From a virus (taxonomy: Duplodnaviria > Caudoviricetes), in IMG/VR virus record IMGVR_UViG_3300020470_005093, positions 1 through 56,597 of that record: DNA of 56,597 bases; one strand, written 5' to 3'. Shown piece by piece: positions 1,427-25,871 of the stretch; the stretch's first letter is position 1, and each line of letters begins with the position of its first letter. The notes under the pieces were generated by a model that saw only the letters and a program-made list of their open reading frames with translations, was not told where the DNA came from and ran no database searches. A program made the position numbers and the translations under genes.

Positions 1427-2119
1427 TTACAGACTGTCCACGAATTGAGCAAGATTATCAAACACTTTTACATCCTTATATTTTGTATTAATACCCTTCA
1501 AGAATTGTTTTTCTGTATCTGCACCCTTACCAGTTCTAACTAACACAGGAGTAGCACCTGCTTTCTGTGCCATCTTAATATCATCTATAGTATCTCCAAC
1601 ATAATATCCAGTTTTCCAATTAACACCTGCCTCTTGACTTGCTCTATTCAACATTCCAGTATTTGGTTTAGCATAAGGATCTTGCGGATTAGATGTTTGA
1701 TTAAAATAAAATCCATCAATACTAAAAATACCATTCTGACCAAATGTTTGCATCATATTGTTCATAATATTTCCAACATCATTACCAGTCAACAATCCTC
1801 TCTCAATATTTGGTTGATCTGAAAATATAACGAAACGATGTCCTTTTAATCTTAAAGAACGAATAGCATCTAATGATCCAGGAATGTATCTAACATCCTC
1901 ATACCTTTTAATAACATTCTTCCATTCAAGAATTACACCATCACGATCTACTCCTATAACTGGACCAGTAAAACTTTGGGGCCAATTATTAGGATTATAT
2001 TGAGAATATCCAGGTGGAGGTGTTTGTCCACCCTGTTGTTGTGGATACCCCTGTTGTTGAGGCATTGATTGTTGTTGAAATCCCTGTGGTGGGGGATTTG
2101 TTGATTTATAACGACCCAT
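1427..2119 (-). CDS. gmhB: D,D-heptose 1,7-bisphosphate phosphatase-like HAD protein with Q/P-rich N-terminus
   Basis: DRDGV, SDQ (usually TNQ), KPNTGM, VGDTIDD and LVRTGKG motifs of the GmhB/HisB-N family. Confidence 0.8.
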   Translation of the reverse strand: MGRYKSTNPPPQGFQQQSMPQQQGYPQQQGGQTPPPGYSQYNPNNWPQSFTGPVIGVDRDGVILEWKNVIKRYEDVRYIPGSLDAIRSLRLKGHRFVIFSDQPNIERGLLTGNDVGNIMNNMMQTFGQNGIFSIDGFYFNQTSNPQDPYAKPNTGMLNRASQEAGVNWKTGYYVGDTIDDIKMAQKAGATPVLVRTGKGADTEKQFLKGINTKYKDVKVFDNLAQFVDSL

Positions 2120-2121
2120 AG

Positions 2122-3909
2122 TTAAACCTTTTGTGTAGGTGGAACAAATACAGACTTCTCATTAGATAATTTAACCAATTTACCCAATTCAGGTAAATAC
2201 ATGTACTCTAATTGACTAGTATATAAAGTTTGAATAGCATCATCCAAAGTTTCTACTAATGGATGTCCTGCTAAATTAAAACTAGTATTGAATAGTAAAG
2301 GAACTCCAGATAGTTTATAAAACTCATTAATAAGATTATAATAGTTTTCATTCTGTTCTTTAGTAACAGTTTGAATTCTACAAGTACCATCTACATGAGT
2401 AACTGCTGGTATCTCACCTATATGCTTGTCTTGCATCTCCATAGCATACATCATATGAGGTGTCTCGTCAAGTCCACGCATTTGAAACCACTCTGCTGCA
2501 TGTTCTTGAAGCATAGAACCTGCAAATGGACGGAACCATTCCCTACCCTTTACTCTATTAACAAAGTCCTTACCTTTAGGATCTGTTGGATCATAAAGAA
2601 TAGAACGATTACCCAATGCTCGTGGTCCTGCCTCTGCTCTTCCTTGGAAAATAGAAACAATATTACGATCTTTAATTAATTGTGCAACCTCAGTAGGTGT
2701 TGTATCCGTTACTTCAATTAATTCATTATCTATATGTGCTTTTAAATTATCTAAAGTATAATTATATTCAGGACCAAGATAAAGAGTATTTAATCTTTCA
2801 GGCATTGGATATTCAACTTCTTCATCACCATTTTTACTTGCGTTTTCAGCAAATTTTTGCAGTCCAAAATATTTTGCATATCCAATCGCAGTTCCACCAT
2901 CATGAGATATTGGATCAACGTAAATATTCAACTCAGGAAATCTTTCTTTATAATAATAATTTGCTACAACATTTAATCCATAACCACCAGAAATACAAAT
3001 ATTATCTTCTCCAGTCATGTCAACTGCTTTTTCAATCAAATCACCTACATATTCCTGTGTTTCTTGTTGAACTTTCCATGCAATATTCTTTTGAGCATCT
3101 GTTATTTTTGCAGGATTCCTATGCCACTCATTAGGTTGACCCTTACTATGGGATAGATATGGAAATCTTTCCTTATCAATATATGAACCCATCGGATAAG
3201 CAGCAACAAAAACATTTTTATCCCCTCTCTTAGTATCTCTGTAAAAGAGATCAGGAATTTTATCATCTTGTCTACCATATGGAGCAAGTCCCATTGTTTT
3301 ACCTGCTTCAATAAATCCAAATCCCAAATAATCAGAGACTCCCTCATATGCTTTAACAGTGGTTACAGCAGAATCTACTTCAAAATCAGGTCTAGAAACT
3401 CTAGGAACCTGATTGTCACCATATCTCTTAAAAATAGGATCAAAGTCTCCAGGATAAGATGCTAAATATATGCTCTCAGTTTCTAATGCTTGCAAATTCA
3501 GTTCTTCATTATCAGATGCTTTAAGATTATGCCTACTACCACAACCATCAACAATTATACAAGCAGCACTTTCAAATCCTGAACCATAAAAAGTAGCAGC
3601 AGCATGTCCTAAATGATGTTCATTTCCAACTGCTAATACTTTTAAATTTGGATTAAATTTCCTAACCAATGCTTCATAAGAACTTTCACCAGTCCAAGGA
3701 AGTCTATGCTCTTCTTGCCCTGTTCCACATATAACCAAGAAATCTACATGATGGTCTTGCATTATATGAAGCATACCCCGAAAAGGATTGCCATCATACT
3801 TTTGACGACTCATCCTTTCCTCTTCAATATAATACTTTAATATACCATCAACCGTAAGTGCCACAGAACCATTGTGTCCTGGATTAATTGCCATCACATT
3901 CCAAGTCAT
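2122..3909 (-). CDS. carbamoyltransferase (NodU/CmcH/TobZ family)
   Basis: EEERMSRQK, HHLGHAA, GKTMGLAPYG, DGGTAIG, EAGPRALGNRSIL, REWFRPFA, HVDGTCRIQTV, NTSFN. Confidence 0.95.
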   Translation of the reverse strand: MTWNVMAINPGHNGSVALTVDGILKYYIEEERMSRQKYDGNPFRGMLHIMQDHHVDFLVICGTGQEEHRLPWTGESSYEALVRKFNPNLKVLAVGNEHHLGHAAATFYGSGFESAACIIVDGCGSRHNLKASDNEELNLQALETESIYLASYPGDFDPIFKRYGDNQVPRVSRPDFEVDSAVTTVKAYEGVSDYLGFGFIEAGKTMGLAPYGRQDDKIPDLFYRDTKRGDKNVFVAAYPMGSYIDKERFPYLSHSKGQPNEWHRNPAKITDAQKNIAWKVQQETQEYVGDLIEKAVDMTGEDNICISGGYGLNVVANYYYKERFPELNIYVDPISHDGGTAIGYAKYFGLQKFAENASKNGDEEVEYPMPERLNTLYLGPEYNYTLDNLKAHIDNELIEVTDTTPTEVAQLIKDRNIVSIFQGRAEAGPRALGNRSILYDPTDPKGKDFVNRVKGREWFRPFAGSMLQEHAAEWFQMRGLDETPHMMYAMEMQDKHIGEIPAVTHVDGTCRIQTVTKEQNENYYNLINEFYKLSGVPLLFNTSFNLAGHPLVETLDDAIQTLYTSQLEYMYLPELGKLVKLSNEKSVFVPPTQKV

Positions 3910-4853
3910 TATGAATTCTCCTTAATATGTTTTGTAATTTGAGTATAGATTTTACCTATTTGATCATCATCAAAATCCATCAAACGATCATTTAACCTAT
4001 CTGCTAAATGAGAATCAAATCCACATGCACGAATAGGAGAATATGTTTTTGCAACATTCTCATTCTCTATGATCTGGAAATAATCAGGATAAGAAATATT
4101 TTCAGCATAAGTTGATCCAAGAATAACTGTACCTGGAATATCAAATGCTCTTGCTACATGTTGACCTAAACTATCGCATCCAATAAAATAATCAACAGAT
4201 TCTATGATTGAACACCATGCTCTAAGATCAGGTATTTGTGGTTTCTCTGAAATTTGATCATCTTGCGATAATGCTTGACCAAATTCAGGGTCTGCCATCA
4301 ATATGATATTATATTTCTGAGATAACTTCTTAACCAACTGGAGATAGACATTAGGTTCTAATGATCTTGTACTATCGTCAATAATGTCTCCATTATCAAC
4401 TCTTGCTGATCTACCAAATGGTTGAATTACGATTGTCTTATCTTTACCTTGCTTTGCTTTAACTTGGGCTAACTGATTTGCTGCCATTTTCTCCTCTGCT
4501 TTACATAAGTAAAGATGAGGTTGCTCTAGATCTGAATGATCATCGGTCTCATTAATGATCTTATCAAATCCTTCGATTAACGAACACTTCTGATTATAGT
4601 AATCATGCAGTAAATATGGTTCAGGATGTATTAAATCATTATCTTTAATAAGAAGATTGAATAACCCCTTCACATCCATACTATATGTTTTATCTTGTAG
4701 AAGACGATTGCCATATAATAAAGAATCCCAACCACCTATAATAACTCCAAAATCTTTATCTGGATTCTTCTTTGCATATTTCTCAAGTGCAGGAATAGCA
4801 CAAATAACACGACCTGCTCCACCATCAAGGTGGAATACCTTTTTTCTAGACAT
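3909..4853 (-). CDS. glycosyltransferase family 9-like (heptosyltransferase-like)
   Basis: N-terminal DGGAGRVICAIP and C-terminal FIGCDSLGQHVARAFDIPGTVILG typical of GT9. Confidence 0.75.
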   Translation of the reverse strand: MSRKKVFHLDGGAGRVICAIPALEKYAKKNPDKDFGVIIGGWDSLLYGNRLLQDKTYSMDVKGLFNLLIKDNDLIHPEPYLLHDYYNQKCSLIEGFDKIINETDDHSDLEQPHLYLCKAEEKMAANQLAQVKAKQGKDKTIVIQPFGRSARVDNGDIIDDSTRSLEPNVYLQLVKKLSQKYNIILMADPEFGQALSQDDQISEKPQIPDLRAWCSIIESVDYFIGCDSLGQHVARAFDIPGTVILGSTYAENISYPDYFQIIENENVAKTYSPIRACGFDSHLADRLNDRLMDFDDDQIGKIYTQITKHIKENS

Positions 4854-4929: not shown

Positions 4930-6219
4930 CTATGTCGTAGTAACCCCCACAGTTGCTGCGAAACCAACAAATGATGCGCCTTCTTTTTTATATAAATTTT
5001 CAACATTAACATCTATCACGAAATTCCTACCAGCAATAACCGATTGTTGTTCCTCAACATCTCCTACAGTACCACCAGCACCAATCGTAGAAGCAATAGA
5101 AACAGTTATAGTGGATACTCCAGTTGTTCCTGATGGAGTAACTATTACGTTTCCTTGAGCAGGTGAAGTAATTATATCCTCAAATGGATAATTACGTACT
5201 CCTAATGTATAACCATATAATTCTGGAGCAGTTGTATTAGTATCAGTAATTATAATATTAAATGATCCACCAGCAACTACTTTAGTTGTACTTAATCCAA
5301 CAGTCTCACTTAAAGTTGGTCTGGTTTGTTCAACTAAAACACTCTTTGATCTCTCAAAAGTAACCACATCTCCAGTACCAATTCCAGATGAAATTGTAGA
5401 AGATAACGAAACTAACGGATGCTCAATTAGTCTTCTAAATTTAACAACGGCATCTGCATCTAAAGCAGATCCTATTGTAGATGCTAACGAAACTGTATTA
5501 TAAACAGTTCCACCAGCAGCAGCAGTTCCTACCCCAATAACTTTTTCAGAAATAGATCCAGACTCAAAAGTATCTCCTAATCCTATGTCTCCAATATCAT
5601 CAATTGCTATAGTACTTTGACCAACAGCTATATCATAACTCACAGCAGTTGTTTGTAGATCAATAATTGCATCTGTTTTAATACCTGCAACTGTACCAGT
5701 TATACTTCCTGTTTTTAATATATCACCAATCGAAACCTCACCAATATCATCTGTAGATATAATATCTGTTCCTACTCCACTAATTTCTCCTGTTTGAGTT
5801 GTATAAACCACAGTTGTTTCTGTACCATTTCCTACCCATGAAGTTGATCCTATTCCTAAAGGATCACTAAACTCAGGAATAAAAATATACACATCATCAG
5901 TAATTTCAGATTGTCCAGGTGCTAATGGCCAATCAGATTTAGCAAATTGATTAGGTGCTTTAGCATTTGATGGTAAATCACGCAATTTATCTCTATAGGT
6001 TGCCCATGCTGCTTTAGTAGTAGAATCTAATGCACCATCAGGAACTTGAGTCCAATCAGATGCTCCTAATGCACCATTTCTCCAATTTCTTAACTCATCA
6101 AGTCGTTGTTGTTTTGCACTTTCAAAAGCATCCATCTGCTCTTGCAATGATATCTGAGGATCTTTTGGACCCCCAGACTCAATTAACTCTCTTCCGTCTA
6201 CTGTAAAATGATGTCCCAT
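4930..6219 (-). CDS. tail-fibre assembly chaperone domain fused to Thr/Gly-rich beta modules
   Basis: LRNWRNGALGASDWTQVPD...WATYRDKLRDLP signature at the N-terminus. Confidence 0.7.
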   Translation of the reverse strand: MGHHFTVDGRELIESGGPKDPQISLQEQMDAFESAKQQRLDELRNWRNGALGASDWTQVPDGALDSTTKAAWATYRDKLRDLPSNAKAPNQFAKSDWPLAPGQSEITDDVYIFIPEFSDPLGIGSTSWVGNGTETTVVYTTQTGEISGVGTDIISTDDIGEVSIGDILKTGSITGTVAGIKTDAIIDLQTTAVSYDIAVGQSTIAIDDIGDIGLGDTFESGSISEKVIGVGTAAAGGTVYNTVSLASTIGSALDADAVVKFRRLIEHPLVSLSSTISSGIGTGDVVTFERSKSVLVEQTRPTLSETVGLSTTKVVAGGSFNIIITDTNTTAPELYGYTLGVRNYPFEDIITSPAQGNVIVTPSGTTGVSTITVSIASTIGAGGTVGDVEEQQSVIAGRNFVIDVNVENLYKKEGASFVGFAATVGVTTT

Positions 6220-6233
6220 TTTTTTAAATCTCC

Positions 6234-7166
6234 TTATTCGTATGCATCATTCGCATCTGGTGCTGATGATCCAGACCATACACCCACGTTAACTGGTAAG
6301 CAGCACGGCCAACCCCATATTGTCCAATTTGGTATTGGATGTGGTAGAGCAACATCACCACATGATGTGTTACCGTAACTACCACCAGCTAATGCTGACA
6401 TGAAGAAGCAATTAGCAAAGAAACATATTGCACAAACATAATTATTAGCCTTTTGATTTTTACTCCATGCCGTACATGCGTTGCAATATGGTATTCCCAT
6501 CATTCTATTACATTGTGCTGGAAAATCACTCCGCCAATAAGGATGCCCCATCCAACATAAATCCCACATCCAATCTGAGTTACAATTACAGTAAGGAGCA
6601 CGAGCACCTCCTGGAGCAGCTTCAAGTTTTAAATCAAACCATCCTAAATTATCCAATCCACTTTGACAATAGTAGCACCATTTTTGATCTGCTCCTATCG
6701 TACATCCACATGTCCTACATCTGCACCAATAACAAAAACAACAAGAACCCATTGGCCAATTATTACATGCACATATTAGCCAATAGGTTTGTTGGCAACA
6801 ACACATGCAACCATTACTACTGACTATTCCTGCACAGAAGTAGATATAACAACATGCTTTAATTCTTTGTCCTGCGAAACAAAATCTAAATCCTCTATAC
6901 TTATTAGTATCAAGATCAAACTTAAAACATCCATTTTCAAAACAATTTGTCCAACAGTTGCAATGACAAATTACAACGTAGCAATTATCAGTGGTTGGTA
7001 AGTAATTTAATGTAGGTCTACATGCAGGAGTTTTTAGATTTGTGCAAAACAGATCACAAACTGCCTTACATGCATATTGACATACTTCAGCAGGGGTAGG
7101 TCCACTTGCTCCTCCACCACCAACAGTTCCTCCAGATGCAGTTTTAGTGCTTACATAACGTGCCAT
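6234..7166 (-). CDS. Cys-rich putative virion/fibre protein
   Basis: 42 Cys in 310 aa (manual count); Gly-rich N-terminal linker. Confidence 0.7.
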   Translation of the reverse strand: MARYVSTKTASGGTVGGGGASGPTPAEVCQYACKAVCDLFCTNLKTPACRPTLNYLPTTDNCYVVICHCNCWTNCFENGCFKFDLDTNKYRGFRFCFAGQRIKACCYIYFCAGIVSSNGCMCCCQQTYWLICACNNWPMGSCCFCYWCRCRTCGCTIGADQKWCYYCQSGLDNLGWFDLKLEAAPGGARAPYCNCNSDWMWDLCWMGHPYWRSDFPAQCNRMMGIPYCNACTAWSKNQKANNYVCAICFFANCFFMSALAGGSYGNTSCGDVALPHPIPNWTIWGWPCCLPVNVGVWSGSSAPDANDAYE

Positions 7167-9901
7167 TAACCTTCATACCCCCATACTTGGAATGATATCT
7201 TACCAGCACCCGATGATCCATAGTTCTTAACGAAGATCTTATCACCATCACTTAGAACGACTCCCGTTCTTTCATATTGATTTATTGGTACGCATTGATC
7301 GATCATTCCTGCACAATCCATATTAGCAGTGAAACAATCACAACATCTATCGATACATGCAGGTGATGCCCTTAAGCAACAATATATGCATGGGTCTTGA
7401 CATGCGACCACAGTTCCTGGTAGTGATGACCAATTAACTAAGTCTTTTGTAGTAAATGCATCCCATCCACAAGTACAGCAGTTATAAAGACCTATACTCC
7501 ATGCACAATGCTCATATCTGAATAGACAAGATACACACATACGTGGTCTTGTATAGTAACTACATGTCCATTCTACTGGGAAGTTAGCTAACTTACAGAA
7601 GAACATAGAATTAATTCCAACTCCATCAGCATTCGGTACAGTATAACCAAACATAGTATCTTTACTAGGATGGTTATTAAGTCCAGAAGGATCTAATGGA
7701 ATCCATTGAGATGATTCAGCACCACCATAACTACCGTTACAACAAGACATATAACAATTTGCCATAGTTGCAGTATCACTACCACATGCACCACCAAGAC
7801 ATATACATCTTCGTTGCATACATGCATTAATACATTTCATATTAATTGAGAATATACCACATCCTGGATGAACTCCTCCACAGAAACTAGCAGTAGCAGG
7901 TCCAGTTCTTATCATCATATAATGACAATCACAACCTGGATGATAAGTAAAGTACTTAATAGGTAACTCAGTACCTGCGTATCGAGCACAATTAACACCA
8001 CCATCTCCACAAGAATATGTTTGTATATCAGGTCCGTATGCTAACCAAGTAGTATTTGGACAATCATAAACCCCACCAACATGCAATGTAAAGGTATTAT
8101 TGCACCAGTTACAATCTTGACAGCAACATTTGCAGAAACAATAACATGAATAGTGTGCTCCACCAATTCCATAAACAGCATTACAACAACTTATATGCCT
8201 CAACCACAGTTGTGCTCCACATGTCATCGCAGCCACAACACCATAAGGACTTATTGGACCACATGAAGAGTTTCTCATAAAGAAATTATTTCCTGTTCCA
8301 CAAGTAGGACAGAAATAAGAACAATGGCATGGTCTACACCAAATCATCTGTTCATTACTACCACATCCATTAACACACCACTGGTATTCAGTACCAGCGC
8401 ACAAACCTATTGTAGCAGTGGTGTAACAGAATTTACCACATTGGCTATTCCGATGACATGATTGACCACAATGTGCTTGACAACAATCAATACGTGTTAT
8501 AGGGTTACTCCATCTTGCTGTACAACAATCACACCTTTTAAATGGTGCAAAATGGAAGTATCCAGCTGGTGGTGTGCCTTTCGCTCCAATATAACCTTCA
8601 TAGTTAGTCAAGCCTAAGTAAGTTCCTGGAGTACATGAAGGACAACATGCACAATAACACATTGTCCATCCCTGTTGAACATGAGCAGTAGTTGCTACAC
8701 TAGAAACATCTTGATCACAATAACCATTATAATTAGCAAGACACATTAAGTTATACCAGTTATGCATAAAGAAACTTCCCCTCATTCCTGGATTCTCACC
8801 AGCACATTCGCTGAACCCAGCTTGAGTTCCTAATCTCATGTAGCATCTCTTACCACCTGGCATATAACAATTACAATAATTACACTTACAACAAACACAA
8901 TTATAAGGAACTGGGTTTGGAGTAGTAGGATTGCAACAAGATGATGTCCAACAACAAGGATTACTACCTGCACCCCAAGGTTTACAGAAGTAGTTACTTG
9001 GACAACCAGTTGGGTCTAGTTGCAATCTCTTTGCATCCCAACAAGATCCAATATGACAATGATTTACAACATATAGTTCTGGACCTTGCATCACATTATT
9101 ACAATAACTTTGACAACATCCACACATAAATCCTGGAAGTACTCCAACAAAAGCGGTTGCTGACATTATGCCACTAAAACACAACGCACAATTCTGTTTT
9201 GCTTGACATGCTGCACAATTACAGAACCAATTCCATCCTGGAAATACGTTAGTATTACCAACACCTAAATGAAGAGCAGTAATTTCAGTACCACCATAAT
9301 TACCTTTTACAAAGCAGCAATTCATGGGATTACCCCAACAACAACTACCTAAACATGTACAAACATTACAATATGGCCATTGCCATTTTTGACAACAATT
9401 AGCAGCAGTATTAGTACAATTTAAATCATTACGGCTATAAATTGTTCCAGCAGCACTTACAAATTCTGATGGATGTGGAATAGCTGTTCCTGATCCAAAA
9501 TAACTACATGTATTTGATAACTGACAACAACCAGTACATTGAGCATTATTAACACAACAGTGCAATCTCCACCAACCACATACACCTGCATCAGAAACTT
9601 CTGGTGTTGCACCATCAGTGCTCATATCCTCATTATACATCCATCCACTAAAGTTGCCCAAATTTCCAGCAACAGTAGTACCAACTCCAACACCAGTTGA
9701 AGTAAATAAAGTAGTTATTCCAGCCATTGCAGTTGTTGCCACACCAACAACAACAGATATTACTTGATTACTTGAAGTACTTAGAGAGTTTGCGAATAAA
9801 GTAACCGCATTTGACTTTCCAGAATCATTACTGTAAGCAATAAAATTACCAAAATCCGATTCTGTGTCTATTACCGTTCTGGTAAATCTTCCACTTGCCA
9901 T
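7166..9901 (-). CDS. large Cys-rich putative virion/fibre protein
   Basis: About 110 Cys in 911 aa (manual count); Cys-free termini; ends YERTGVVLSDGDKIFV...VWGYEG. Confidence 0.75.
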   Translation of the reverse strand: MASGRFTRTVIDTESDFGNFIAYSNDSGKSNAVTLFANSLSTSSNQVISVVVGVATTAMAGITTLFTSTGVGVGTTVAGNLGNFSGWMYNEDMSTDGATPEVSDAGVCGWWRLHCCVNNAQCTGCCQLSNTCSYFGSGTAIPHPSEFVSAAGTIYSRNDLNCTNTAANCCQKWQWPYCNVCTCLGSCCWGNPMNCCFVKGNYGGTEITALHLGVGNTNVFPGWNWFCNCAACQAKQNCALCFSGIMSATAFVGVLPGFMCGCCQSYCNNVMQGPELYVVNHCHIGSCWDAKRLQLDPTGCPSNYFCKPWGAGSNPCCWTSSCCNPTTPNPVPYNCVCCKCNYCNCYMPGGKRCYMRLGTQAGFSECAGENPGMRGSFFMHNWYNLMCLANYNGYCDQDVSSVATTAHVQQGWTMCYCACCPSCTPGTYLGLTNYEGYIGAKGTPPAGYFHFAPFKRCDCCTARWSNPITRIDCCQAHCGQSCHRNSQCGKFCYTTATIGLCAGTEYQWCVNGCGSNEQMIWCRPCHCSYFCPTCGTGNNFFMRNSSCGPISPYGVVAAMTCGAQLWLRHISCCNAVYGIGGAHYSCYCFCKCCCQDCNWCNNTFTLHVGGVYDCPNTTWLAYGPDIQTYSCGDGGVNCARYAGTELPIKYFTYHPGCDCHYMMIRTGPATASFCGGVHPGCGIFSINMKCINACMQRRCICLGGACGSDTATMANCYMSCCNGSYGGAESSQWIPLDPSGLNNHPSKDTMFGYTVPNADGVGINSMFFCKLANFPVEWTCSYYTRPRMCVSCLFRYEHCAWSIGLYNCCTCGWDAFTTKDLVNWSSLPGTVVACQDPCIYCCLRASPACIDRCCDCFTANMDCAGMIDQCVPINQYERTGVVLSDGDKIFVKNYGSSGAGKISFQVWGYEG

Positions 9902-9967: not shown

Positions 9968-9988
9968 TATTAGTTTTTTTAAGACCAA

Positions 9989-17433: not shown

Positions 17434-17731
17434 CTATGAATAGATCTGCATGAGGTTTACCCATAATCAATTCGTTATACTTACAACCCCAATCATCTAA
17501 TTGTTGTTTTGTAAGATCAAATAAAGCTGCCTCTGCTGATACAGATGCTATAGAATGAGGTTGATCAGAAAATCTACCCATTGCTCGTGCAGTGAAATAG
17601 ATTATGTAATTACCCTCATCGTAAAGTTTATTTAGTACCTTGATCCTATCCTGCCAAGGTTCTGCTTTATGGTAATCTCTACCTACAGTAGGTGTACAAA
17701 TTGTACCATCAATATCAACACAATATCTCAT
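17393..17731 (-). CDS. HAD phosphatase (capsule-biosynthesis type)
   Basis: VDIDGTI, YFTAR, GKPHADLFIDDK. Confidence 0.8.
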   Translation of the reverse strand: MRYCVDIDGTICTPTVGRDYHKAEPWQDRIKVLNKLYDEGNYIIYFTARAMGRFSDQPHSIASVSAEAALFDLTKQQLDDWGCKYNELIMGKPHADLFIDDKGINCDDFFRN

Positions 17732-18443: not shown

Positions 18444-18841
18444 AGGTTCTGTATTTTCTTAACTGTTTTACTACTAGCATAACCTCCCACTCTTGGAAGA
18501 AATCTTGTTTCCATAGCATATTCCCAACCAACTACATCACCATCCCTCCAATCATCACCAAGTAATAGTATATCAGGTTCATATAATTGAATCAAGCCTT
18601 CTAATTCTTTTCTGTCACAAAACGTCAACACAACATCAATATACTTGATTGCCTCAAGCATTGCAACTCTATACTTTAAATCATTGATAGGTTTATGATC
18701 ACCTTTATCCTTTTTTATCTTCTCATCAGTATCCGTGGCAACAATAACCTTATCACCCAGTGATCTTGCAACTTTAAAAAGTTCTATATGACCTGGATGT
18801 AGAATATCAAATGTTCCATTAGTCCATACAATTTTAGACAC
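18440..18841 (-). CDS. hldC: heptose-1-phosphate adenylyltransferase (RfaE/HldE domain II)
   Basis: WTNGTFDILHPGH nucleotidyltransferase motif; adjacent to hldA. Confidence 0.85.
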   Translation of the reverse strand: MSKIVWTNGTFDILHPGHIELFKVARSLGDKVIVATDTDEKIKKDKGDHKPINDLKYRVAMLEAIKYIDVVLTFCDRKELEGLIQLYEPDILLLGDDWRDGDVVGWEYAMETRFLPRVGGYASSKTVKKIQNL

Positions 18842-19586
18842 GATAAACCTCGTCTACAGTTACCATACTTGCCCTCTTGTTGATGATTCTATTCACTTCA
18901 GGATCATCTTTCTGTTCCTCAGTAGGAATATAAATTGCCTTTGAATTTATAGGACAATTTTTTACAGGATCAGTTAGATAATAAACTGCTATACTCTTTC
19001 TGTAACACTTCTCAGGACACTCTAAAGGAGTGGGTAATCCATGATATGAGTTTTGTGTCGTATCAAAAATTACAGCACGATTAAACAAAGTATCAATAGA
19101 AGTTACACATTCTTTTCTATCTGCTGACCAGAATTCTAATTGACCTTTCCACTCAGGATTCCAGTTCTCTGCAAGATAAACAATAAGATTTAACTTCCGT
19201 TGGAGTTTCAGTTTAGGATGTATAGAATAATCAAGATGTATGTTAAGTTTACCACCTTTTTCATGTATATGCAACCCTCCACCATGCAAACCAACATCAG
19301 GATAGAGTTTCTTAATACCAGTAATTTTTTTTAACTTAGATATAAATGTAGGTGAATTTAAATAGCAAAATGTAGAATATAAATTTCTAGGAAACAAATT
19401 CCATACGTTACATGTCTTTTTATTTTCTAATGGATTATCATATACATACCAGACATCAGAATTATAATCAGGAAACTCACGACTTAATGATATAGCAGTC
19501 TCCTCATCAAAAAAATTATCTATAACTGCATGATGAAATGGTTTTCCTGAAGTAAACTCATTTTTTAATTTGAGTTGATTAATCAT
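18834..19586 (-). CDS. 2OG-Fe(II) oxygenase
   Basis: GGGLH, HLD, YHG and RKS motifs. Confidence 0.9.
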   Translation of the reverse strand: MINQLKLKNEFTSGKPFHHAVIDNFFDEETAISLSREFPDYNSDVWYVYDNPLENKKTCNVWNLFPRNLYSTFCYLNSPTFISKLKKITGIKKLYPDVGLHGGGLHIHEKGGKLNIHLDYSIHPKLKLQRKLNLIVYLAENWNPEWKGQLEFWSADRKECVTSIDTLFNRAVIFDTTQNSYHGLPTPLECPEKCYRKSIAVYYLTDPVKNCPINSKAIYIPTEEQKDDPEVNRIINKRASMVTVDEVYRV

Positions 19587-20209
19587 ATATAATTATCTTC
19601 TGCAAAAATTGTATCATACATATTCATCTCTTTATGTACATGATGCATATCATAAGGATCAAACCTATCTCCTGTACCAATCATCAACTCCCTATCAATC
19701 TTACCATGTTCTCCATCAGTGTATAAAAAACTCTCATCTAATGTTGCCACATAGTCTGCATTAGCCCACCAAAAATTACCACTAAAATGAGGTGAAGGAT
19801 GCATCCTCAACTTAGCTCCCACTGCATCATAGGTTTTTAATTTTTTGATACATTCTTTCCACCTATCAATAACAATATACTCTAAAAACATTCTCCATGC
19901 ATGAAGTTGAGGAACAAACTGTCTACTTGCTCCCTTTGCATGAAAGAATAATACTTTATAATCTGGATTTAACTTACAAAATCTATATACAGACTCTACT
20001 GTTTCTCCTTCATCTTTAGTTAATCGTTTATTATAAAGAACTTGTGATTTTTTTGGTCGTGAAAATAATTCATGCTCACCTACAATACCAATATGAATAA
20101 ACTCACATGCATCCATCAATCCAGATGCATATAATCTGTGCATCTGTTGTTGATATATCAAACCAGATAATGGAGTCTGATATAAATGATAAAAAATTGC
20201 TATCTTCAC
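19583..20209 (-). CDS. glycosyltransferase-cluster hypothetical protein
   Basis: FFHAKG and HFSGNFWWA motifs; overlapping start/stop in operon. Confidence 0.6.
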   Translation of the reverse strand: MKIAIFYHLYQTPLSGLIYQQQMHRLYASGLMDACEFIHIGIVGEHELFSRPKKSQVLYNKRLTKDEGETVESVYRFCKLNPDYKVLFFHAKGASRQFVPQLHAWRMFLEYIVIDRWKECIKKLKTYDAVGAKLRMHPSPHFSGNFWWANADYVATLDESFLYTDGEHGKIDRELMIGTGDRFDPYDMHHVHKEMNMYDTIFAEDNYI

Positions 20210-20871
20210 AAGTTACTCCATTTCGCAATTGTTTCCTTTGCTATTCTTATAGACTTTTCTTTATCACCTGTGCCAACATGAACAGCATAATCATGGTGTG
20301 AACCAGCACCAAGAACTCCTTGATACTTTAAACCATACTTTGCAAGATTATATGATAAAGCAAACTCATCAGCATAATGACCCCACCCACGGTTCCATTC
20401 ATTTGGTTCCTCATCATTAGGGACTGCTAAGTCAGAAATTTGTTCAGGTGTGAGTGGTAATGGTTCCCAAATATCATGAGTTAATTGGGATGAAACAACT
20501 AGATTAGTAGCAATTCCAACATCTCTACCATCTCTTACAAAATACTTTATTCTATTAGTATAATATTTTTTACTAATATTATAACCATAATTGAAAGCAA
20601 CTGCATCCTCAGATAAAAAAGTTTCAAAGTCTGGTAAGTTTGGATGAAGTAACATATCAGCATCAACTAAGACATTCATTTGATTATCTTTACCATCCTC
20701 ATAGACCTGCATCTTCTCATAAGTGATAGGATAATCAGGAAACTTTCTCTCTGTTATCATATTAATAATATATCCGTTCCTCTCTGCATATAATCTAATA
20801 GTAGGATATGTTATCCTAAAAAGTTTTGGAAAGAAATTATTAATATTAAGTACGTGTATTACCTTTTTCAT
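20206..20871 (-). CDS. putative GT-A glycosyltransferase
   Basis: YEK...LVDADML DxD motif. Confidence 0.6.
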   Translation of the reverse strand: MKKVIHVLNINNFFPKLFRITYPTIRLYAERNGYIINMITERKFPDYPITYEKMQVYEDGKDNQMNVLVDADMLLHPNLPDFETFLSEDAVAFNYGYNISKKYYTNRIKYFVRDGRDVGIATNLVVSSQLTHDIWEPLPLTPEQISDLAVPNDEEPNEWNRGWGHYADEFALSYNLAKYGLKYQGVLGAGSHHDYAVHVGTGDKEKSIRIAKETIAKWSNL

Positions 20872-21602
20872 TTATATTCAGTTAATGCCGTTCCGTCTTC
20901 TCTAATTGTCGATAACCCATAATTATCTTCATATGCGTAAAGATCATCCTGAACTATCCCAAACATATCTGACCTTATCATTGCATCTGCAGTGGTTATT
21001 ATACCATGATTAATACTATATGCAACCAAGTTCTTTGCAATAGCAGGATCAATAGAATAAGCATGTGCTCTACAAATAAATCTATCCAATCCTTTATGGT
21101 CGGTTGCATGTGGAGGAATAGTATCATCCATAGGCATACTTCCATCTACTTGCTCACTGCCTCCCAAATAAACAATGTTATTATAATAACTGTGCCTAAG
21201 ATATGGTTTGACCATAACAGCATCATGTTCCAAAATAACAATTGGTTTATCCTGAGATAAGCATAGACACCATAACGAATAGTGAGAAAGGAAACATGCA
21301 ATCTGAGTCATTAATAGATCAGACCTACGCAATCTTAAAAAATTAAGAAATGCTTGGTCTTTTAAAGCTTCAGGAACCTTAATAGTTCCCATCTCCCCTA
21401 TTGGTTGCCCAAGTTTATGATCTTGAGTAGCTATAGGAGAATTTGTAGCATCAAAACCAGGCACAACTATAACATTAGGTTGACCTACTTTCTTACATGA
21501 TTCAAAACATTGTTTAGTAAGTTTCTGAGAAACCTCATTACCCTCAATAGAAATAATATAAGTTGCCCCCACATCCATATCATAAGAATTATAATAATTC
21601 AT
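20868..21602 (-). CDS. glycosyltransferase family 25
   Basis: IACFLSHYSLW...IVILEHDA...AHAYSI. Confidence 0.85.
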   Translation of the reverse strand: MNYYNSYDMDVGATYIISIEGNEVSQKLTKQCFESCKKVGQPNVIVVPGFDATNSPIATQDHKLGQPIGEMGTIKVPEALKDQAFLNFLRLRRSDLLMTQIACFLSHYSLWCLCLSQDKPIVILEHDAVMVKPYLRHSYYNNIVYLGGSEQVDGSMPMDDTIPPHATDHKGLDRFICRAHAYSIDPAIAKNLVAYSINHGIITTADAMIRSDMFGIVQDDLYAYEDNYGLSTIREDGTALTEYK

Positions 21603-22264
21603 TTCAATATCTCCTCACACTTATCATAAAAGTAAGTATTATATACATTTTCTCGACTAGAAAATAAATGAAAGAACATCTCAACACCTAAAGAATTTTC
21701 AAATGTAGTTCCAATACCATAACTACCACGACCCTTCCCAAGATTCCATTTACCACCAAAAGGATCTCTGATATAAGATTTTGGCATGAATATCTCAACT
21801 TCTACTCCTTGCTCCTCTGCATCATAAGTATAATATTCACATGTATCTGCTCTAATATGATCAGGAGCAAATGATCTTCTACCAAACTTATCATAGTTGG
21901 TTCTGTTTATACAGAAACATGAAGATCCAACAAACATATGCTCATCGTTATCAATGTGCATAGATCGTTGAGCATTACCAATTATAATATTCTTCTCTGC
22001 TTGCGTAAAGATATAATCTAATGCATAAGAATTTAATGGTATACAATCAACATCTAAAAACAATACACTATCATATCCTTCTTCAAATAAAGCAGATGCA
22101 CCATAATCAAGTGCTTGATAATGTATTATTTGATCTTCTCCCACTTTACAGAATAATGGTTTATAATCTGCAACAGTATTATATTTCTGTAATACTCTTT
22201 GATGCAAAAATAGAAGGTTTTTATCTATAGCATCATTATAATATGTAAGTATAGCTCTTTTCAT
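21599..22264 (-). CDS. putative GT-A glycosyltransferase
   Basis: LFLDVDCIPL DxD motif. Confidence 0.6.
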   Translation of the reverse strand: MKRAILTYYNDAIDKNLLFLHQRVLQKYNTVADYKPLFCKVGEDQIIHYQALDYGASALFEEGYDSVLFLDVDCIPLNSYALDYIFTQAEKNIIIGNAQRSMHIDNDEHMFVGSSCFCINRTNYDKFGRRSFAPDHIRADTCEYYTYDAEEQGVEVEIFMPKSYIRDPFGGKWNLGKGRGSYGIGTTFENSLGVEMFFHLFSSRENVYNTYFYDKCEEILK

Positions 22265-23550
22265 TAGAAATCTTTCATAAAATCATGTAATTTTTCAATC
22301 GTCTTATCCCAACCATTATACTCCATTTGTTGAATAACGACAACATTATCAGGATACCAAGTATTTTCTTTAACATTCCACGTTATATATGGCACTAAAG
22401 GAGGAAGAACAACAACCTTTGCTCCCATTGCACCAGCAAGATGTGCAACTGCGGTACATGATGTAACTACTAAATCAGACTCAGCAATAACATCATATGT
22501 ATCACACCAATCATGAATCAAATGAGAAAGATCCCATACATTTGCATTCTTAGGAAGATTACTATCCTCTATTTGCAACGAAAACAATTGTCCATACTTC
22601 TCAAGTCCCAATAAACCCTCAACAGGAACACTTCTAAATTGTTCATGTTCGAATTGAGGATTACCTCTCCATCTAATACATATCTTTTTCTTACCATTAG
22701 CAATCCTATTCATCTCATCAACGGGATTTGCTTTCCTCTTTAAGTATGGGAAAGTTACTCCTTCACGAGGATGATTTAACCCTAGAAAATATGGAGCAGA
22801 CATAGCAGGTACATATTTGTCCCAACCAGTCTTTGTAATATATTCAGGTGTATATACATTCTCATATCCACATTCTTCTAATAAAGGTATTAATGATTTG
22901 GGTGCAAATATCTTTACTGTCTTACAATATTTTTTAAAATTTTCTACATAACGAACAAATATCATTCCATCACCCATACCTCCTTCAAGATAAAAAGCAA
23001 TCGTATCTACTGTCTCACCATTCCACCTATACTGCTCACCTATATTATAATCCTTCCTCAGTATCCACTCATGACCCCATACTCTTAATTCATCACTAGC
23101 ACCTGCACGAATATACTTATATCCTTCTTGTAATTTATCTTCTGCTAATAGATACCATCCATAATTAAATGAAGCACGCGCATTAGTATCTGCAATCGGT
23201 GCTAAAATTTCTCTAGATTTATCAAATTTACCTTGTGCATTTAAATATAAAGACAAGTCTATTTTATGACCATCATCAAATGTCGGAAGAGATCTCATAA
23301 TCTCTTCTGCTTCATGTGCTCTATGTAAAAAATATAAACAACTAGCTTTATTAACAAGAAGATGAGGTGTTTCTGGCAATTTATCCAAACATTCTAAAGT
23401 TTTATCAAACTTTTTATCTTCATAGTAGGTTCCAGCTAAAAGACCTAGAATTTGCTCATCTTCCTCATGATTCAAATAAGCAATAGCAAGTTTTTGTGCT
23501 GCAGCAAATTCCTTTGCGTCATACAACTCATTAATTAATTGTGGTATCAT
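22264..23550 (-). CDS. TPR-containing GT9-like glycosyltransferase
   Basis: N-terminal helical repeats; EGGMGDGMIFVRY; DLVVTSCTAVAHLAGAMG. Confidence 0.8.
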   Translation of the reverse strand: MIPQLINELYDAKEFAAAQKLAIAYLNHEEDEQILGLLAGTYYEDKKFDKTLECLDKLPETPHLLVNKASCLYFLHRAHEAEEIMRSLPTFDDGHKIDLSLYLNAQGKFDKSREILAPIADTNARASFNYGWYLLAEDKLQEGYKYIRAGASDELRVWGHEWILRKDYNIGEQYRWNGETVDTIAFYLEGGMGDGMIFVRYVENFKKYCKTVKIFAPKSLIPLLEECGYENVYTPEYITKTGWDKYVPAMSAPYFLGLNHPREGVTFPYLKRKANPVDEMNRIANGKKKICIRWRGNPQFEHEQFRSVPVEGLLGLEKYGQLFSLQIEDSNLPKNANVWDLSHLIHDWCDTYDVIAESDLVVTSCTAVAHLAGAMGAKVVVLPPLVPYITWNVKENTWYPDNVVVIQQMEYNGWDKTIEKLHDFMKDF

Positions 23551-23576
23551 AATAAATCATAATATAAATTAGATAA

Positions 23577-25871
23577 TTAAACAGCCATGCCTAAGAATGT
23601 CCATTTCAAACTTGTAAAAGCTTGAGATGATTCTAATCTAATTGCATTATATGCACCTGCCGTATCCCAAGAAGTAGTAGAAATAATAGCACCAAAGTAA
23701 CCACTACTACCTGAAGTTGTTTCTCCAATCTGACCAGAAAAATTGAAAGTTGGACGTACCACCGTACCAGTAGGTTCAACAAAATTTATTTCACCTGCAT
23801 AAAACTTTTTATTATTGCCAGCAAGAAGTTGCCCCCAATCACATCCTTCACCAATATTCCAATGAGAACTACCCTCTCTTCCCTGAACTGATGTTCTCCA
23901 AGAAGTATCAGCAGCTGTATATGAAGATCCACCATCTGTAGAAAGGTTAATTCCAAACTTACCATTACTACTTAACACAGTTGAAAATAGTATTTTATAA
24001 AAATGATAAGTAGTTGTCAATTGATTTGTTGTTACAACAGAAGTAGTTCCTGATGTAGCAGATCCAGACCCCAATTTAACCCATCCAGCAGCAGGAGTTG
24101 CCCATTGAGGAGCAGCACCCGTACCTTTACTTGTTAATACTTGCCCATCTGTTCCATAGTGACCTGTACCAGCAATACCAATTTGACCTGCTGTACCTAT
24201 GCGGAGTTTTTCTGCATTAATATTTCCTAATACTAAAGGACCACTATAATGATTAAGAATATAGGAAGTATCACTACCACCTTGGTATAACTTTAAACCA
24301 TTAGAATCACCCGATGCATTTTTAAGCCGTAGTTCTCCTCCAGATTCAATTATATTACCAGTAACATTTAGACTAGTAGAAGTTACAACACCAGCACTAA
24401 CTCCACCAGCACTAAATCTAGCACCACCCGCTTCTAATATACCAGCCTGGAAAGTAGCAATTCCCACTCCACCAGCAGTAAATGCAAATTGATCTGCAGC
24501 AGGAGAATATAAACCAGTATTTGTATCTCCATTGAAGTAAAGACCTGGTGCTGAAATTGTACCAGCAGTAATTCCAAGTCCTGCCAACATATTATCCCCC
24601 ATTTTACTGAGGAACATTCCACTAGCTTCAAATGGTGATGCGTCTACCCAGAAAGCAGAAGAACCAACACCTAAAGCACTTTCATCATAATAAACGAATG
24701 TTCTTGCGATGTCAATATTGAACCATAAATCTCCACTAGAAGGAGTAACAGGAGCAGTTTGTCCAATACTAACAGAACCTCCACCTCCTCCTCCACCACC
24801 ACCTGAAATGGTAATGTCTACTGTATCAGTTGATGGATTATATTGGAAAGTATTACCAGAACCAACAAAATTAAGTTGAGTTACACCAGTACCAATTCTT
24901 ACTCCACCAGACTGAATACCAATCTGACCAGTAAACTCTGTACTAACACCACTCAGAGGATCCCCAACCAAATTACTAATAGTAGCAGTCGTAAAGGTAA
25001 CAACCCCAATACTGGCATTCGTTGCATTAAACTGAGCAACTGTACCAACACCCGTTATATTCGCATTAGTTGCACTAAGATTAGCAATCGTACCCAAAGA
25101 AGTTATATTGGGTTGAGCAGCAGTTTGTAATGTACCCGTTAAATCACCAACAAAACTTGTAGCAGTTGCAACTCCTAATACTGCATTAGTAGAATTTAAC
25201 TGAGCAATAGTACCAAGACCAGTAATATTAATATTTCTACCTGTTACCTCATCATATACAACATCACCAACAACATTTAAGTTACCAGCAACATATAAAT
25301 GACTACTAAACGTACCAATACCAGCAAAGGTAGATACTCCTGATACGTTTACATTATCTAACTCTGAATGTCCAGTAACATTAAGTCCCGAACCACCTGA
25401 AATATCTGCACCACCATTAGCATCTATAGCACCAGTGAATGTAGATACACCAACTACAGCATTCGTTGCATTAAACTGAGCAACTGTACCAACACCACTT
25501 ACTAATAAATTATCTTCTGCAATTACATCCGCCTTGAATGTAGAAACTCCAGTTATTACTAAATCATCATATTCATTAGGACTACCTTTAGTCGCTGCTT
25601 CAATCGTATTCTGGGTTGTCGTATCCAGACTAGCAATATTTTTTAATTGTCTCGCAGAACTTATAACTTCATTCGACCCAATACTTAATGAACCTACAGT
25701 AGAAATTCCAGATATTACTGTATTAGTAGCACCAATTCCTCCAATAACATGGAATTTGTGCTGTACTATAGTAGTACCTATACCAACTGAATTTAACTCT
25801 GTATCAGAATATATGAGGTTATTATTTACCTCAATACCATTCTTAACTATAAAATTCTTGTTAACAGCCAT
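23577..25871 (-). CDS. tail fibre protein
   Basis: MAVNKNFIVKNG start, G-V/I-x-T repeats, poly-Gly, GDLWFN, PGLYFNGDTNTGLYSP, GTDGQVLTS. Confidence 0.85.
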   Translation of the reverse strand: MAVNKNFIVKNGIEVNNNLIYSDTELNSVGIGTTIVQHKFHVIGGIGATNTVISGISTVGSLSIGSNEVISSARQLKNIASLDTTTQNTIEAATKGSPNEYDDLVITGVSTFKADVIAEDNLLVSGVGTVAQFNATNAVVGVSTFTGAIDANGGADISGGSGLNVTGHSELDNVNVSGVSTFAGIGTFSSHLYVAGNLNVVGDVVYDEVTGRNINITGLGTIAQLNSTNAVLGVATATSFVGDLTGTLQTAAQPNITSLGTIANLSATNANITGVGTVAQFNATNASIGVVTFTTATISNLVGDPLSGVSTEFTGQIGIQSGGVRIGTGVTQLNFVGSGNTFQYNPSTDTVDITISGGGGGGGGGSVSIGQTAPVTPSSGDLWFNIDIARTFVYYDESALGVGSSAFWVDASPFEASGMFLSKMGDNMLAGLGITAGTISAPGLYFNGDTNTGLYSPAADQFAFTAGGVGIATFQAGILEAGGARFSAGGVSAGVVTSTSLNVTGNIIESGGELRLKNASGDSNGLKLYQGGSDTSYILNHYSGPLVLGNINAEKLRIGTAGQIGIAGTGHYGTDGQVLTSKGTGAAPQWATPAAGWVKLGSGSATSGTTSVVTTNQLTTTYHFYKILFSTVLSSNGKFGINLSTDGGSSYTAADTSWRTSVQGREGSSHWNIGEGCDWGQLLAGNNKKFYAGEINFVEPTGTVVRPTFNFSGQIGETTSGSSGYFGAIISTTSWDTAGAYNAIRLESSQAFTSLKWTFLGMAV
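25015..25496. repeat. 38-bp exact direct repeat (25015-25052, 25459-25496) plus degenerate copy (25183-25220)
   Basis: gcattcgttgcattaaactgagcaactgtaccaacacc, encoding GVGTVAQFNATNA. Confidence 0.9.

Follow-up and report, generated by a model that had tools for sequence, protein, structure and literature searches.

Two GT9-fold genes in a cyanophage heptose gene cluster are each tied to one class of partner protein: a candidate system for heptosylation of tail-fibre proteins

We analysed a 56.6-kb stretch of viral DNA (IMG/VR record IMGVR_UViG_3300020470_005093, 56,597 nt, referred to below as the window), which has a G+C content of 30-39%, is estimated to be 27% complete and, judged by its sequence, is a fragment of a T4-like cyanomyovirus of the P-SSM2 type. 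Our subject is the gene cluster at 1427-25871, where sugar-enzyme genes stand among genes for fibre-type proteins, and in particular two genes whose products are predicted to have a GT9 glycosyltransferase fold. Across this region the minus strand carries every non-nested open reading frame (ORF) of at least 80 amino acids (aa). Three genes form the first enzyme block (1427-4853) and twelve the second (16262-23550), the latter chained by overlaps of 1-41 nt or a spacing of 2 nt. Seven genes lie between the blocks (4930-16231), gene 23577-25871 lies upstream of block 2, and further upstream there are a gene for a 1999-aa tail fibre and other large minus-strand ORFs. This ORF map confirmed the layout described in the initial annotation, two co-oriented enzyme blocks around seven fibre/adhesin-type genes with an eighth upstream. 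The cluster itself is already known, being the "LPS gene" (LPS, lipopolysaccharide) cluster of P-SSM2, T4-GC 302-308. Two gene-pair rules are previously unreported: by sequence comparison, the two GT9 genes each keep to a single partner class across wide divergence, and one of them across phage families. The genes concerned are the following.

3909-4853, minus strand: stand-alone GT9-fold protein P0002, 314 aa (phrog_8954; T4-GC 302 of P-SSM2; AlphaFold2 fold)
22264-23550, minus strand: TPR-GT9 fusion P0001, 428 aa (TPR helices at about 1-160, GT9-fold domain at 182-428)
2122-3909, minus strand: NodU/CmcH-type O-carbamoyltransferase, 595 aa (PF16861 3.1e-60, PF02543 6.8e-20)
6234-7166, minus strand: Cys-rich protein, 310 aa, 42 Cys or 13.5% (by composition; no Pfam or PHROG match)
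7166-9901, minus strand: large Cys-rich protein, 911 aa, 111 Cys or 12.2% (by composition; no family match)
10896-12629, minus strand: RCC1-repeat protein 1 (PF00415 1.6e-29; tail-fibre PHROGs at the N-terminus)
12635-14431, minus strand: RCC1-repeat protein 2 (PF00415 8e-18)
14453-16231, minus strand: RCC1-repeat protein 3 (PF00415 1.5e-20)

The stand-alone gene is called GT9-like below and the fusion gene TPR-GT9. The initial annotation had listed both products as GT9-like transferases, and this holds by predicted fold and fails by GT9 hidden Markov model (HMM). A six-frame search of the window with PF01075 gave no match at E <= 0.001; P0001 reached at best 12.4 bits with PF01075, short of the gathering score of 22, and P0002 had no PF01075, Pfam or NCBIfam match. 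Searches of PDB chains with P0001 and P0002 (single sequence and profile) returned TPR matches only, or none. In a language-model atlas, PF01075 is listed on 10-50% of the members of neighbouring viral clusters, which we take as a lead only. AlphaFold2 models of both proteins were built on 21-sequence alignments and reached pLDDT 83.2 for P0001 and pLDDT 82.3 with pTM 0.84 for P0002. For residues 182-428 of P0001 the VIA-align Z scores were 16.2 to WaaF (root-mean-square deviation 3.2, 234 residues), 15.3 to the Veillonella GT9 entry 3tov and 14.9 to both WaaC and TibC, with the next unrelated family at only 11.3. Foldseek ranks 1-9 for P0002 were all chains of WaaC, WaaF and 3tov (E 1e-9 to 8e-8, TM 0.52-0.70; WaaC 1.3e-9), and TibC was among the top matches at 2.1e-7. 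According to these models, both proteins share the GT9 fold (GT-B, GT9 topology). Aligned by hhalign, the two families gave only a 52-column C-terminal match with a probability of 0.9%. The TPR N-terminus of P0001 was confirmed by TPR matches and by its all-helical model.

In GT9 enzymes the catalytic Asp sits in an N-terminal Gly-rich loop, as does Asp13 of WaaC. Across 21 relatives of P0001, GMGD (G193, D194) is invariant. In P0002 the invariant elements are GAGR (G14, R15) and the nearby D10, and a D-S-x-G-x-H segment, which we take to resemble the GT9 nucleotide-sugar motif, is invariant in 21 relatives. By inspection, the invariant Arg of P0002 presumably stands where WaaC and TibC have their catalytic Asp. 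Cys residues are invariant at C209, C227 and C365 in P0001, and at C226 alone in P0002. For TibC, Asp-110 is given as the catalytic residue (PMC4358343).

A profile search of IMG/VR with the GT9-like protein gave 223 relatives, and all locus counts for this gene refer to the best 80 of them. Genes were scored as present when found within 10 kb either side of the GT9 gene, and an ORF, taken stop-to-stop, counted as Cys-rich from 150 aa and a Cys content of 8% upwards. The carbamoyltransferase was found in 74 of the 80 loci and the GmhB-like phosphatase in 49, followed by HldC (33/80), HldA (31/80) and HldD (29/80). Among the 63 loci with at least 4 kb of upstream sequence, 46 have a same-strand Cys-rich ORF ending no more than 6 kb upstream, often merely 70-100 nt from the GT9-like gene. 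The downstream side served as an internal control and held such an ORF in only 1 of 61 loci; counted by ORF, the figures are 72/292 upstream versus 0/288 downstream. After dereplication at 90% identity (80 loci to 48 clusters), the informative clusters with an upstream Cys-rich ORF numbered 29 of 39, or 34 of 39 at 5% Cys, versus 1 of 39 downstream. Several of the negative loci hold Gly-rich ORFs with 5-7.3% Cys, and none of the 30 TPR-GT9 loci without the GT9-like gene has a Cys-rich ORF. The initial annotation had proposed testing whether the cluster co-occurs with Cys-rich fibres, and the outcome was strongly positive.

The same arrangement is found in cultured phages. P-SSM2, S-SSM7 and S-CAM1, which represent three genera, show the Cys-rich pattern and share one gene order: a large tail fibre, several "hypothetical" genes, GT9-like, carbamoyltransferase, HldC, HldA, the HAD phosphatase, the cupin and HldD, and then tail fibre/virion protein/gp13, with extra interspersed genes in S-SSM7. 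The "hypothetical" genes directly upstream of GT9-like in these three encode 8.3-11.6% cysteine. Cys-rich partner candidates in these phages are PSSM2_304/306, SSSM7_114-116 and SXBG_224-226. A 28%-identical homologue of the GT9-like protein was found in a Vibrio phage of the Schitoviridae, where its gene is flanked, according to the annotation, by 'tail fiber protein' on one side and 'tail family protein' on the other.

The Cys-rich partners do not form one family. The 81 Cys-rich ORFs fell into 13 groups unlinked by BLAST, so the conserved trait is composition rather than a single protein family. Of 10 sampled partners, 4 matched the Pfam family Gly_rich_2 (three above cut-off), 2 matched tail PHROGs (tail fiber assembly, minor tail protein) and 1 had a virion-structural-type N-terminus; a Gly-rich C-terminal motif ends many of these ORFs. 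The window's protein 6234-7166 has relatives upstream of the GT9-like gene in loci L007 and L009-L011. Protein 7166-9901 has Cys-poor termini that are conserved in its relatives, and is linked by BLAST to ORFs in L009, L010, L012-L015 and L023, mainly via its C-terminal third, with additional links of its N-terminus to L009 and L010.

With Arg at the presumed Asp position, the P0002 family may be a non-conventional O-glycosyltransferase or no enzyme at all. In the latter case the stand-alone GT9-like protein, and perhaps TPR-GT9 too, might be an assembly or folding factor for fibres built on a GT-B fold, with the heptose genes serving otherwise. Phage fibres commonly need a dedicated chaperone encoded alongside them, GT9 HMMs fail to recognise the stand-alone protein, and an inactive GT9-fold subunit occurs in plant NDH (7wff/9grx, among the fold matches). 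The invariance of D-S-x-G-x-H and the GMGD retained by TPR-GT9 speak for activity, and the tight linkage to carbamoyltransferase and phosphatase genes points to a chemical function more than to a chaperone. Moreover, all seven named cultured cyanophages that carry the GT9-like gene also have HldA, no more than about 7 kb away. We consider an assembly role distinctly improbable.

The same Arg allows a more speculative reading, to which we give only a slim chance: the stand-alone GT9-like protein and the carbamoyltransferase might act on Cys thiols, by S-heptosylation and/or S-carbamoylation of tail proteins with 8-16% Cys. This would fit the apparent replacement of the base Asp by Arg, because a thiolate can do without a base and Arg might stabilise it, and it would fit partners that fall into 13 unrelated groups and have richness in Cys, not sequence, in common. 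HypF, whose fold is akin to that of NodU/TobZ, places its carbamoyl group on a cysteine. If the thiol reading were true, a protein modification so far undescribed in viruses would be present in abundant ocean phages.

The second pairing joins TPR-GT9 to RCC1 beta-propeller proteins, of which the window encodes three paralogues with a pairwise identity of about 30%. A TPR-GT9 profile search of IMG/VR gave 41 loci (26 clusters at 90% identity), and an RCC1 homologue was present in 40 of the loci and 25 of the clusters; the single miss is a 6-kb contig with the TPR-GT9 match at its end. Among 50,697 deposited phage records, a TPR-GT9 homologue occurs in three distinct phages (4 records), and these 4 records are also the four best-ranked RCC1 matches, with RCC1 at 1-3 kb from TPR-GT9. 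The pair is present in the cultured freshwater Synechococcus phages BUCT-ZZ01 and S-SRM01. In 185,579 species genomes there were 5 TPR-GT9 matches, all on short contigs of metagenome-assembled genomes (MAGs), and RCC1 was present in all 5. Where the pairs diverge most (30-36% identity; contigs of 25-379 kb), the RCC1 partner is a bare propeller whose gene stops 60-250 nt upstream of GT9. As a control, RCC1 was found in only 5 of the 80 GT9-like loci, and all five (L037 among them) also hold TPR-GT9. Other genes of block 2 are also frequent near TPR-GT9: GT25 in 28 of 41 loci, homologues of the DxD genes 20206-20871 and 21599-22264 in 23 and 21, the 2-oxoglutarate (2OG) oxygenase in 11 and a homologue of 19583-20209 in 12.

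Such pairings could arise if the RCC1 and Cys-rich proteins were lectin-like or enzymatic partners of a host or soluble glycan, or if synteny were simply inherited without function. Beta-propellers often bind carbohydrates; the RCC1 proteins of L120 and L123 are bare propellers without a fibre-like domain and with no structural genes recognised nearby, and many loci are kin by descent, as the reduction from 80 to 48 and from 41 to 26 clusters indicates. The pairing persists nevertheless down to 30% enzyme identity and over 13 partner groups without detectable shared sequence, and it is seen in another phage family with tail genes as neighbours. In the window, the RCC1 and Gly-rich proteins have tail-fibre-type N-termini and their genes late-promoter-like motifs. 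We hold this explanation, in either form, to be very unlikely.

Taken as a whole, the region may be a tail-fibre module with its own supply of ADP-heptose and with two GT9-fold transferases whose targets are fibre-type proteins of the phage itself, a proposal to which we give an even chance. The genes tibC and tibA, like aah and aidA, are adjacent to each other. The two pairings mirror the logic of tibC-tibA, and fibre proteins are therefore favoured as acceptors. In the proposed scheme, the kinase, the small phosphatase, the adenylyltransferase and the epimerase would lead from heptose-7-phosphate to ADP-L,D-heptose, possibly with the cupin in place of the isomerase GmhA. TPR-GT9 would dock on the RCC1 proteins and heptosylate them, GT25 and the two DxD proteins would extend the glycan, and the prolyl-4-hydroxylase (P4H)-like oxygenase would possibly hydroxylate the protein. 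The second GT9-like enzyme would glycosylate the Cys-rich proteins and the carbamoyltransferase would O-carbamoylate the sugar; since its solved relatives NovN and TobZ act on sugar hydroxyls, a carbamoyl-heptose is plausible. These steps would take place in the host cytoplasm before virion assembly, and their purpose would likely be the tuning of fibre stability or of receptor interaction. A precedent is found in the GT9-fold enzyme TibC, which heptosylates the adhesins TibA and AIDA-I (PMC4358343).

The BAHT family (TibC, AAH) is close to the phage proteins in its GT9-type GT-B fold, and both phage models have TibC high among their structural matches. These enzymes are cytoplasmic and use ADP-heptose, with an adhesin being modified, much as in the proposed phage scheme; their features also include an N-terminal beta-barrel, a four-Cys iron-finger and dodecamer assembly (PMC4358343). 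The barrel and the iron-finger are missing from the phage proteins: the N-terminus of P0001 is all-helical TPR, in P0002 the first Rossmann strand comes at once, at residue 5, and neither has a cluster of four conserved Cys. For this reason the phage enzymes fall outside the BAHT family. They resemble TibC no more closely than they do WaaC or WaaF. The partners differ as well, being RCC1 propellers and Cys-rich proteins in the phage and beta-helix passengers in BAHT systems. Unlike BAHT enzymes, those of the window are phage-encoded with their own donor pathway, and one is TPR-fused while the other is apparently without the Asp base. By analogy, the phage GT9-fold enzymes plausibly work like TibC.

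The established reading is that the enzymes build or alter a glycan of the host surface (LPS, capsule-like or another envelope glycan), for superinfection block, altered grazing or lysis delay, and that the fibres are mere neighbours in a hyperplastic region. The initial annotation had stated that such phage clusters are usually called LPS genes, and the homologous P-SSM2 cluster is indeed so labelled: the 2005 description speaks of "24 LPS genes in two clusters" and proposes a change of the host surface (PMC1079782), a reading repeated in later papers (PMC2984593, PMC12801897). A further study notes that several LPS-cluster genes co-occur in P-SSM2, S-SM2 and S-SSM7, and raises 'stuffer DNA' as a possible reading of such genes (PMC3037559). 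Those GT9, GT25 and Hld enzymes that have been studied best belong to the LPS core, and TPR domains also occur in capsule polymerases. Named phages with HldA and without the GT9-like gene number five; in the three inspected (S-SM2, P-TIM68, S-T4) the heptose genes stand in the auxiliary-gene region among numerous further sugar enzymes, one of them annotated as a capsular polysaccharide biosynthesis protein, and no Cys-rich ORF was found near them.

A host-surface role leaves unexplained why each GT9 gene is tied to one fibre class across 30-99% identity. Family scans of the proteins encoded at 843-32293 found no flippase, polymerase or ligase family, which is a weak negative, and the late-promoter-like motifs described below suggest expression near the end of the lytic cycle. 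As regards the acceptor, a review reports cyanobacterial LPS to be without Kdo and heptose (PMC4390846), which would also remove the acceptor of WaaC and WaaF, Kdo2-lipid A. WaaC and WaaF (GT9, PF01075) are the best structural matches, and ADP-heptose genes lie near the phage genes as they do in core-LPS loci; the phage proteins differ in failing PF01075 and in having fibre-like proteins, not LPS genes, as conserved neighbours. We regard a host-surface role as unlikely. DNA modification was also considered as a role of the sugar genes and was dropped, as nothing in the window points to it and it would leave the pairing with fibre proteins unexplained.

The initial annotation had favoured virion proteins over host LPS as acceptors on three grounds, late timing, interleaving with fibres and the TPR domain, each of which is weaker than stated there. 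A TPR fusion is not specific for a protein acceptor: the whole-model Foldseek search with P0001 placed the capsule-polymerase multienzyme 8qoy first, and OGT and SPY dominate the list. Interleaving with fibres is not a general trait of heptose genes, since it fails in S-SM2, P-TIM68 and S-T4. The acceptor conclusion is better supported by the positive co-occurrence tests than by these grounds, and on guilt by association virion proteins appear the better candidates, a view that is thereby partly supported.

With respect to timing, TAAATA on the coding strand was found at all six sites where it had been claimed (25900, 16243, 14450, 10885, 9960/9964 and 4896), 12-63 nt upstream of six genes of the region. 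Intergenic bases make up 3.0% of 652-44367 and hold 10 of its 22 coding-strand copies (binomial p = 3e-10). On both strands of the whole window, TATAAATA was found 4 times versus 11.1 expected and CTAAATA 12 times versus 19.7; overall depletion with intergenic concentration would fit a selective removal of stray late promoters from within genes. The published cyanomyovirus late motif is NATAAATA (PMC2984593), which is fitted exactly only at 25900, 9960/9964 and 4896; sites 10885 and 14450 read CTAAATA and 16243 reads TTAAATA. Site 25900 carries TATAAATA 29 nt before the start of 23577-25871, which heads the block-2 transcription unit. A AATAAATA lies at 9960/9964 ahead of gene 7166-9901 and another at 4896, 43 nt before the start codon of P0002, and CTAAATA is found 18 nt ahead of 9989-10867 and, at 32324, ahead of 26294-32293. 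Upstream TAAATA accompanies the GT9-like gene in 34 of 80 loci, including all 10 closest relatives at 43-57 nt. Scans of the window for sigma-70 sites and terminators gave counts at or below chance. Two sites with 11/12 of the sigma-70 consensus lie inside 23577-25871 (24715-24687 and 24020-23992, minus strand), upstream of enzyme block 2, and such sequences could give early or middle expression of its enzymes. The motifs behind the late timing asserted earlier are confirmed in presence and intergenic enrichment, except for block 2; the timing itself is a motif-based prediction, less firm than was stated. A search of sequencing runs listed no RNA run containing the sequence. As a separate observation, both strands carry TATAAATA at 25900-25911.

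Several findings weigh against fibre heptosylation. Heptose genes lie within 10 kb of GT9-like in only about 31 of 80 loci and of TPR-GT9 in only 10 of 41, and all counts for GT9-like come from the best 80 of its 223 relatives. GmhA, sought as the SIS_2 family PF13580, had 0 matches in the window, which covers 27% of the genome. The apparent replacement of the catalytic Asp by Arg in P0002 may speak against ordinary transferase activity. Block 2 is without a TAAATA of its own, so that late expression would require read-through from 25900, and TAAATA within 100 nt upstream of TPR-GT9 was found in 1 of 24 loci. The heptose genes of S-SM2, P-TIM68 and S-T4 are far from fibres, with nrdB or NAD synthetase on one side and hli genes on the other. 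The conserved neighbourhood may come partly from shared descent or a common insertion hot-spot. Published virion proteomes are of S-SM1, S-PM2 and Syn9 (PMC3037559), phages without a GT9-like match.

The remaining genes of the region and the large fibre gene next to it are as follows.

1427-2119, minus strand: GmhB-like HAD-IIIA phosphatase, 230 aa (NF006506 9.4e-29, below cut-off; Pfam HAD families)
4930-6219, minus strand: Ser/Thr/Gly-rich protein, 429 aa, no Cys (tail-fibre-assembly-like N-terminus, PF16778 2.7e-14; PHROGs)
9989-10867, minus strand: Gly-rich tail-fibre-like protein, 292 aa (phrog_18673, tail fiber protein, 1.3e-21)
16262-17053, minus strand: HldD-type epimerase (TIGR02197, 4e-62, 210.2 versus cut-off 274.6)
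17056-17433, minus strand: cupin (weak PDB relatives are sugar isomerases; L-ribose isomerase 1.2e-3)
17393-17731, minus strand: small HAD phosphatase (TIGR01689, capsule biosynthesis phosphatase, 1.3e-7; motif DIDGT)
17715-18443, minus strand: HldA-type kinase (TIGR02198, 2.3e-43, 148.5 versus curated cut-off 345)
18440-18841, minus strand: HldC-type adenylyltransferase (TIGR02199, 4e-30, 104.5 versus cut-off 181.5)
18834-19586, minus strand: 2OG-Fe(II) oxygenase, prolyl-4-hydroxylase-like (PF13640 2.6e-15)
19583-20209, minus strand: 208-aa protein (no family match)
20206-20871, minus strand: putative DxD transferase, DAD motif (hydrophobic strand and DxD only)
20868-21602, minus strand: GT25 (PF01755 2.6e-11, above cut-off)
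21599-22264, minus strand: putative DxD transferase, DVD motif (hydrophobic strand and DxD only)
23577-25871, minus strand: Gly/Ser/Thr-rich baseplate-wedge/tail-fibre-like protein, 764 aa (PHROGs 2.4e-18 to 5e-5)
26294-32293, minus strand: large tail fibre protein, 1999 aa, just outside the cluster (phrog_529, 1290 bits)

The PHROG matches of 4930-6219 are to tail fibre and tail fibre assembly. For the enzymes, HMM searches upheld HldA, HldC, HldD, the GmhB-like HAD, GT25, the 2OG oxygenase and the carbamoyltransferase of the earlier list, and left the DxD pair on its motif: the two proteins had no family match and no PDB sequence match. The cupin 17056-17433 and the 208-aa gene 19583-20209 were absent from that list. 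The HldA, HldC and HldD assignments are in each case the best NCBIfam match and in each case below the equivalog cut-off, and the heptose genes of block 2 have 75-80% DNA identity to P-SSM2, P-SSM5 and single-cell-derived marine viruses, the value for P-SSM2 and P-SSM5 being about 77%. The carbamoyltransferase passed both Pfam cut-offs (Carbam_trans_N 72.2 bits, cut-off 24; Carbam_trans_C 203 bits, cut-off 27), and among solved sequences it comes nearest to NovN, TobZ and GdmN, which it matches at about 1e-46 across the catalytic region. These three carbamoylate sugar or macrolactam hydroxyls; the phage enzyme is instead tied to the GT9-like gene and Cys-rich proteins. In the LPS core of Pseudomonas aeruginosa, 7-O-carbamoyl-heptose is made beside GT9 enzymes. 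GT25 gave nothing meaningful against the PDB by phmmer, and the weak nearest solved sequences of the 2OG oxygenase were OGFOD1 (4.7e-3) and P4H (7.7e-3). The GT25 family includes collagen hydroxylysine galactosyltransferases; this and the P4H-like relatives are no more than suggestive.

The cupin was found with heptose genes in every cultured carrier inspected. Because of this co-occurrence and its weak similarity to sugar isomerases, it may be a candidate substitute for GmhA, a non-orthologous sedoheptulose-7-phosphate isomerase. Its homologues (PSSM2_312, SSSM7_131, SXBG_00217, SSM2_211 and AVU42_gp194) bear the GenBank label 'cysteine dioxygenase'. The small HAD gene 17393-17731 is T4-GC 306 (P-SSM2, S-SSM7, S-SM2 and others), publicly labelled 'phosphoheptose isomerase', also in PHROG 1238; from its sequence this label looks wrong, and the protein looks a better candidate for GmhB than for an isomerase. 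In 49 of 80 loci the GmhB-like HAD comes after the pair formed by GT9-like and carbamoyltransferase, including loci with neither HldA nor HldC within 10 kb. The role of 1427-2119 may accordingly belong to that pair's module rather than to ADP-heptose synthesis.

The window shares with the cyanomyovirus "LPS gene" clusters of the P-SSM2, S-SSM7 and S-SM2 kind homologous genes in the same order (T4-GC 302-308: GT9-like, which S-SM2 does not have, carbamoyltransferase, HldC, HldA, HAD, cupin and HldD), and with P-SSM2, S-SSM7 and S-CAM1 the flanking of the cluster by tail-fibre genes. Beyond P-SSM2, S-SSM7 and S-SM2 it carries a second module of TPR-GT9, three RCC1 genes, GT25, two DxD genes and the 2OG oxygenase. 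P0001 resembles OGT, SPINDLY and Xanthomonas OGT in joining an N-terminal TPR to a C-terminal GT-B domain. In OGT/SPINDLY-type enzymes the TPR binds the protein substrate, and Caulobacter FlmG is a further TPR-fused protein glycosyltransferase. The catalytic domain is GT41 in OGT and SPINDLY but GT9-like in the phage, and the low TM-scores to OGT/SPY (0.2-0.36) mean that the resemblance is architectural only. Viruses that glycosylate their own virions are known: chloroviruses and, reportedly, mycobacteriophages (Freeman and colleagues, 2023) decorate their structural proteins by glycosyltransferases of their own, with capsid and tail-tube proteins and hexose-type sugars involved in these cases. 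To our knowledge, neither case involves a heptose pathway, GT9 enzymes, a carbamoyltransferase or Cys-rich or RCC1 partners. A full-text literature search, with most subscription journals outside its reach, found no proposal of cyanophage fibre heptosylation or of the pairings described here.

P-SSM2-type phages are models for the study of Prochlorococcus and Synechococcus, and their "LPS genes" have gone unexplained for twenty years. If fibre glycosylation is true, viruses would join a few enterobacterial adhesins as known cases of protein heptosylation, the determination of host range in the ocean would gain a post-translational layer, and the import of a whole nucleotide-sugar pathway into hosts with reportedly heptose-free LPS would be explained. 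The two enzyme-partner rules supply concrete, cloneable substrate candidates, and with P-SSM2, S-SSM7 and S-CAM1 in culture the question is directly testable.

A few further observations concern the partner proteins and their loci. Where both GT9 genes stand in one cluster (L036/L037, at about 6845-8150 on the plus strand; L105, L108, L110 and L113), the RCC1 proteins have 4.6-8.5% Cys and look like a hybrid of the two partner classes. In L113 the RCC1 partner ORF (6130-7482, plus strand) has an internal stop inside the tblastn match, which may reflect a pseudogene or a sequencing error. Distant GT9-like homologues in Aeromonas and Vibrio phages adjoin large ORFs that are the most Cys-rich of their loci (L133 5258-6982, 4.2% Cys; L132 7733-10516, 4.4%; versus 0-2.5% elsewhere in the loci), a faint echo of the cyanophage pattern. 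The five MAG contigs with TPR-GT9 (L127-L131) are labelled Chlamydiae, Pseudomonadota and Saccharibacteria, and one also has GT25 and DxD genes; the likely origin of these contigs is phage DNA that was binned into MAGs. In the window, a 119-aa ORF on the opposite, plus strand (25934-26293) lies between the two large minus-strand fibre genes.

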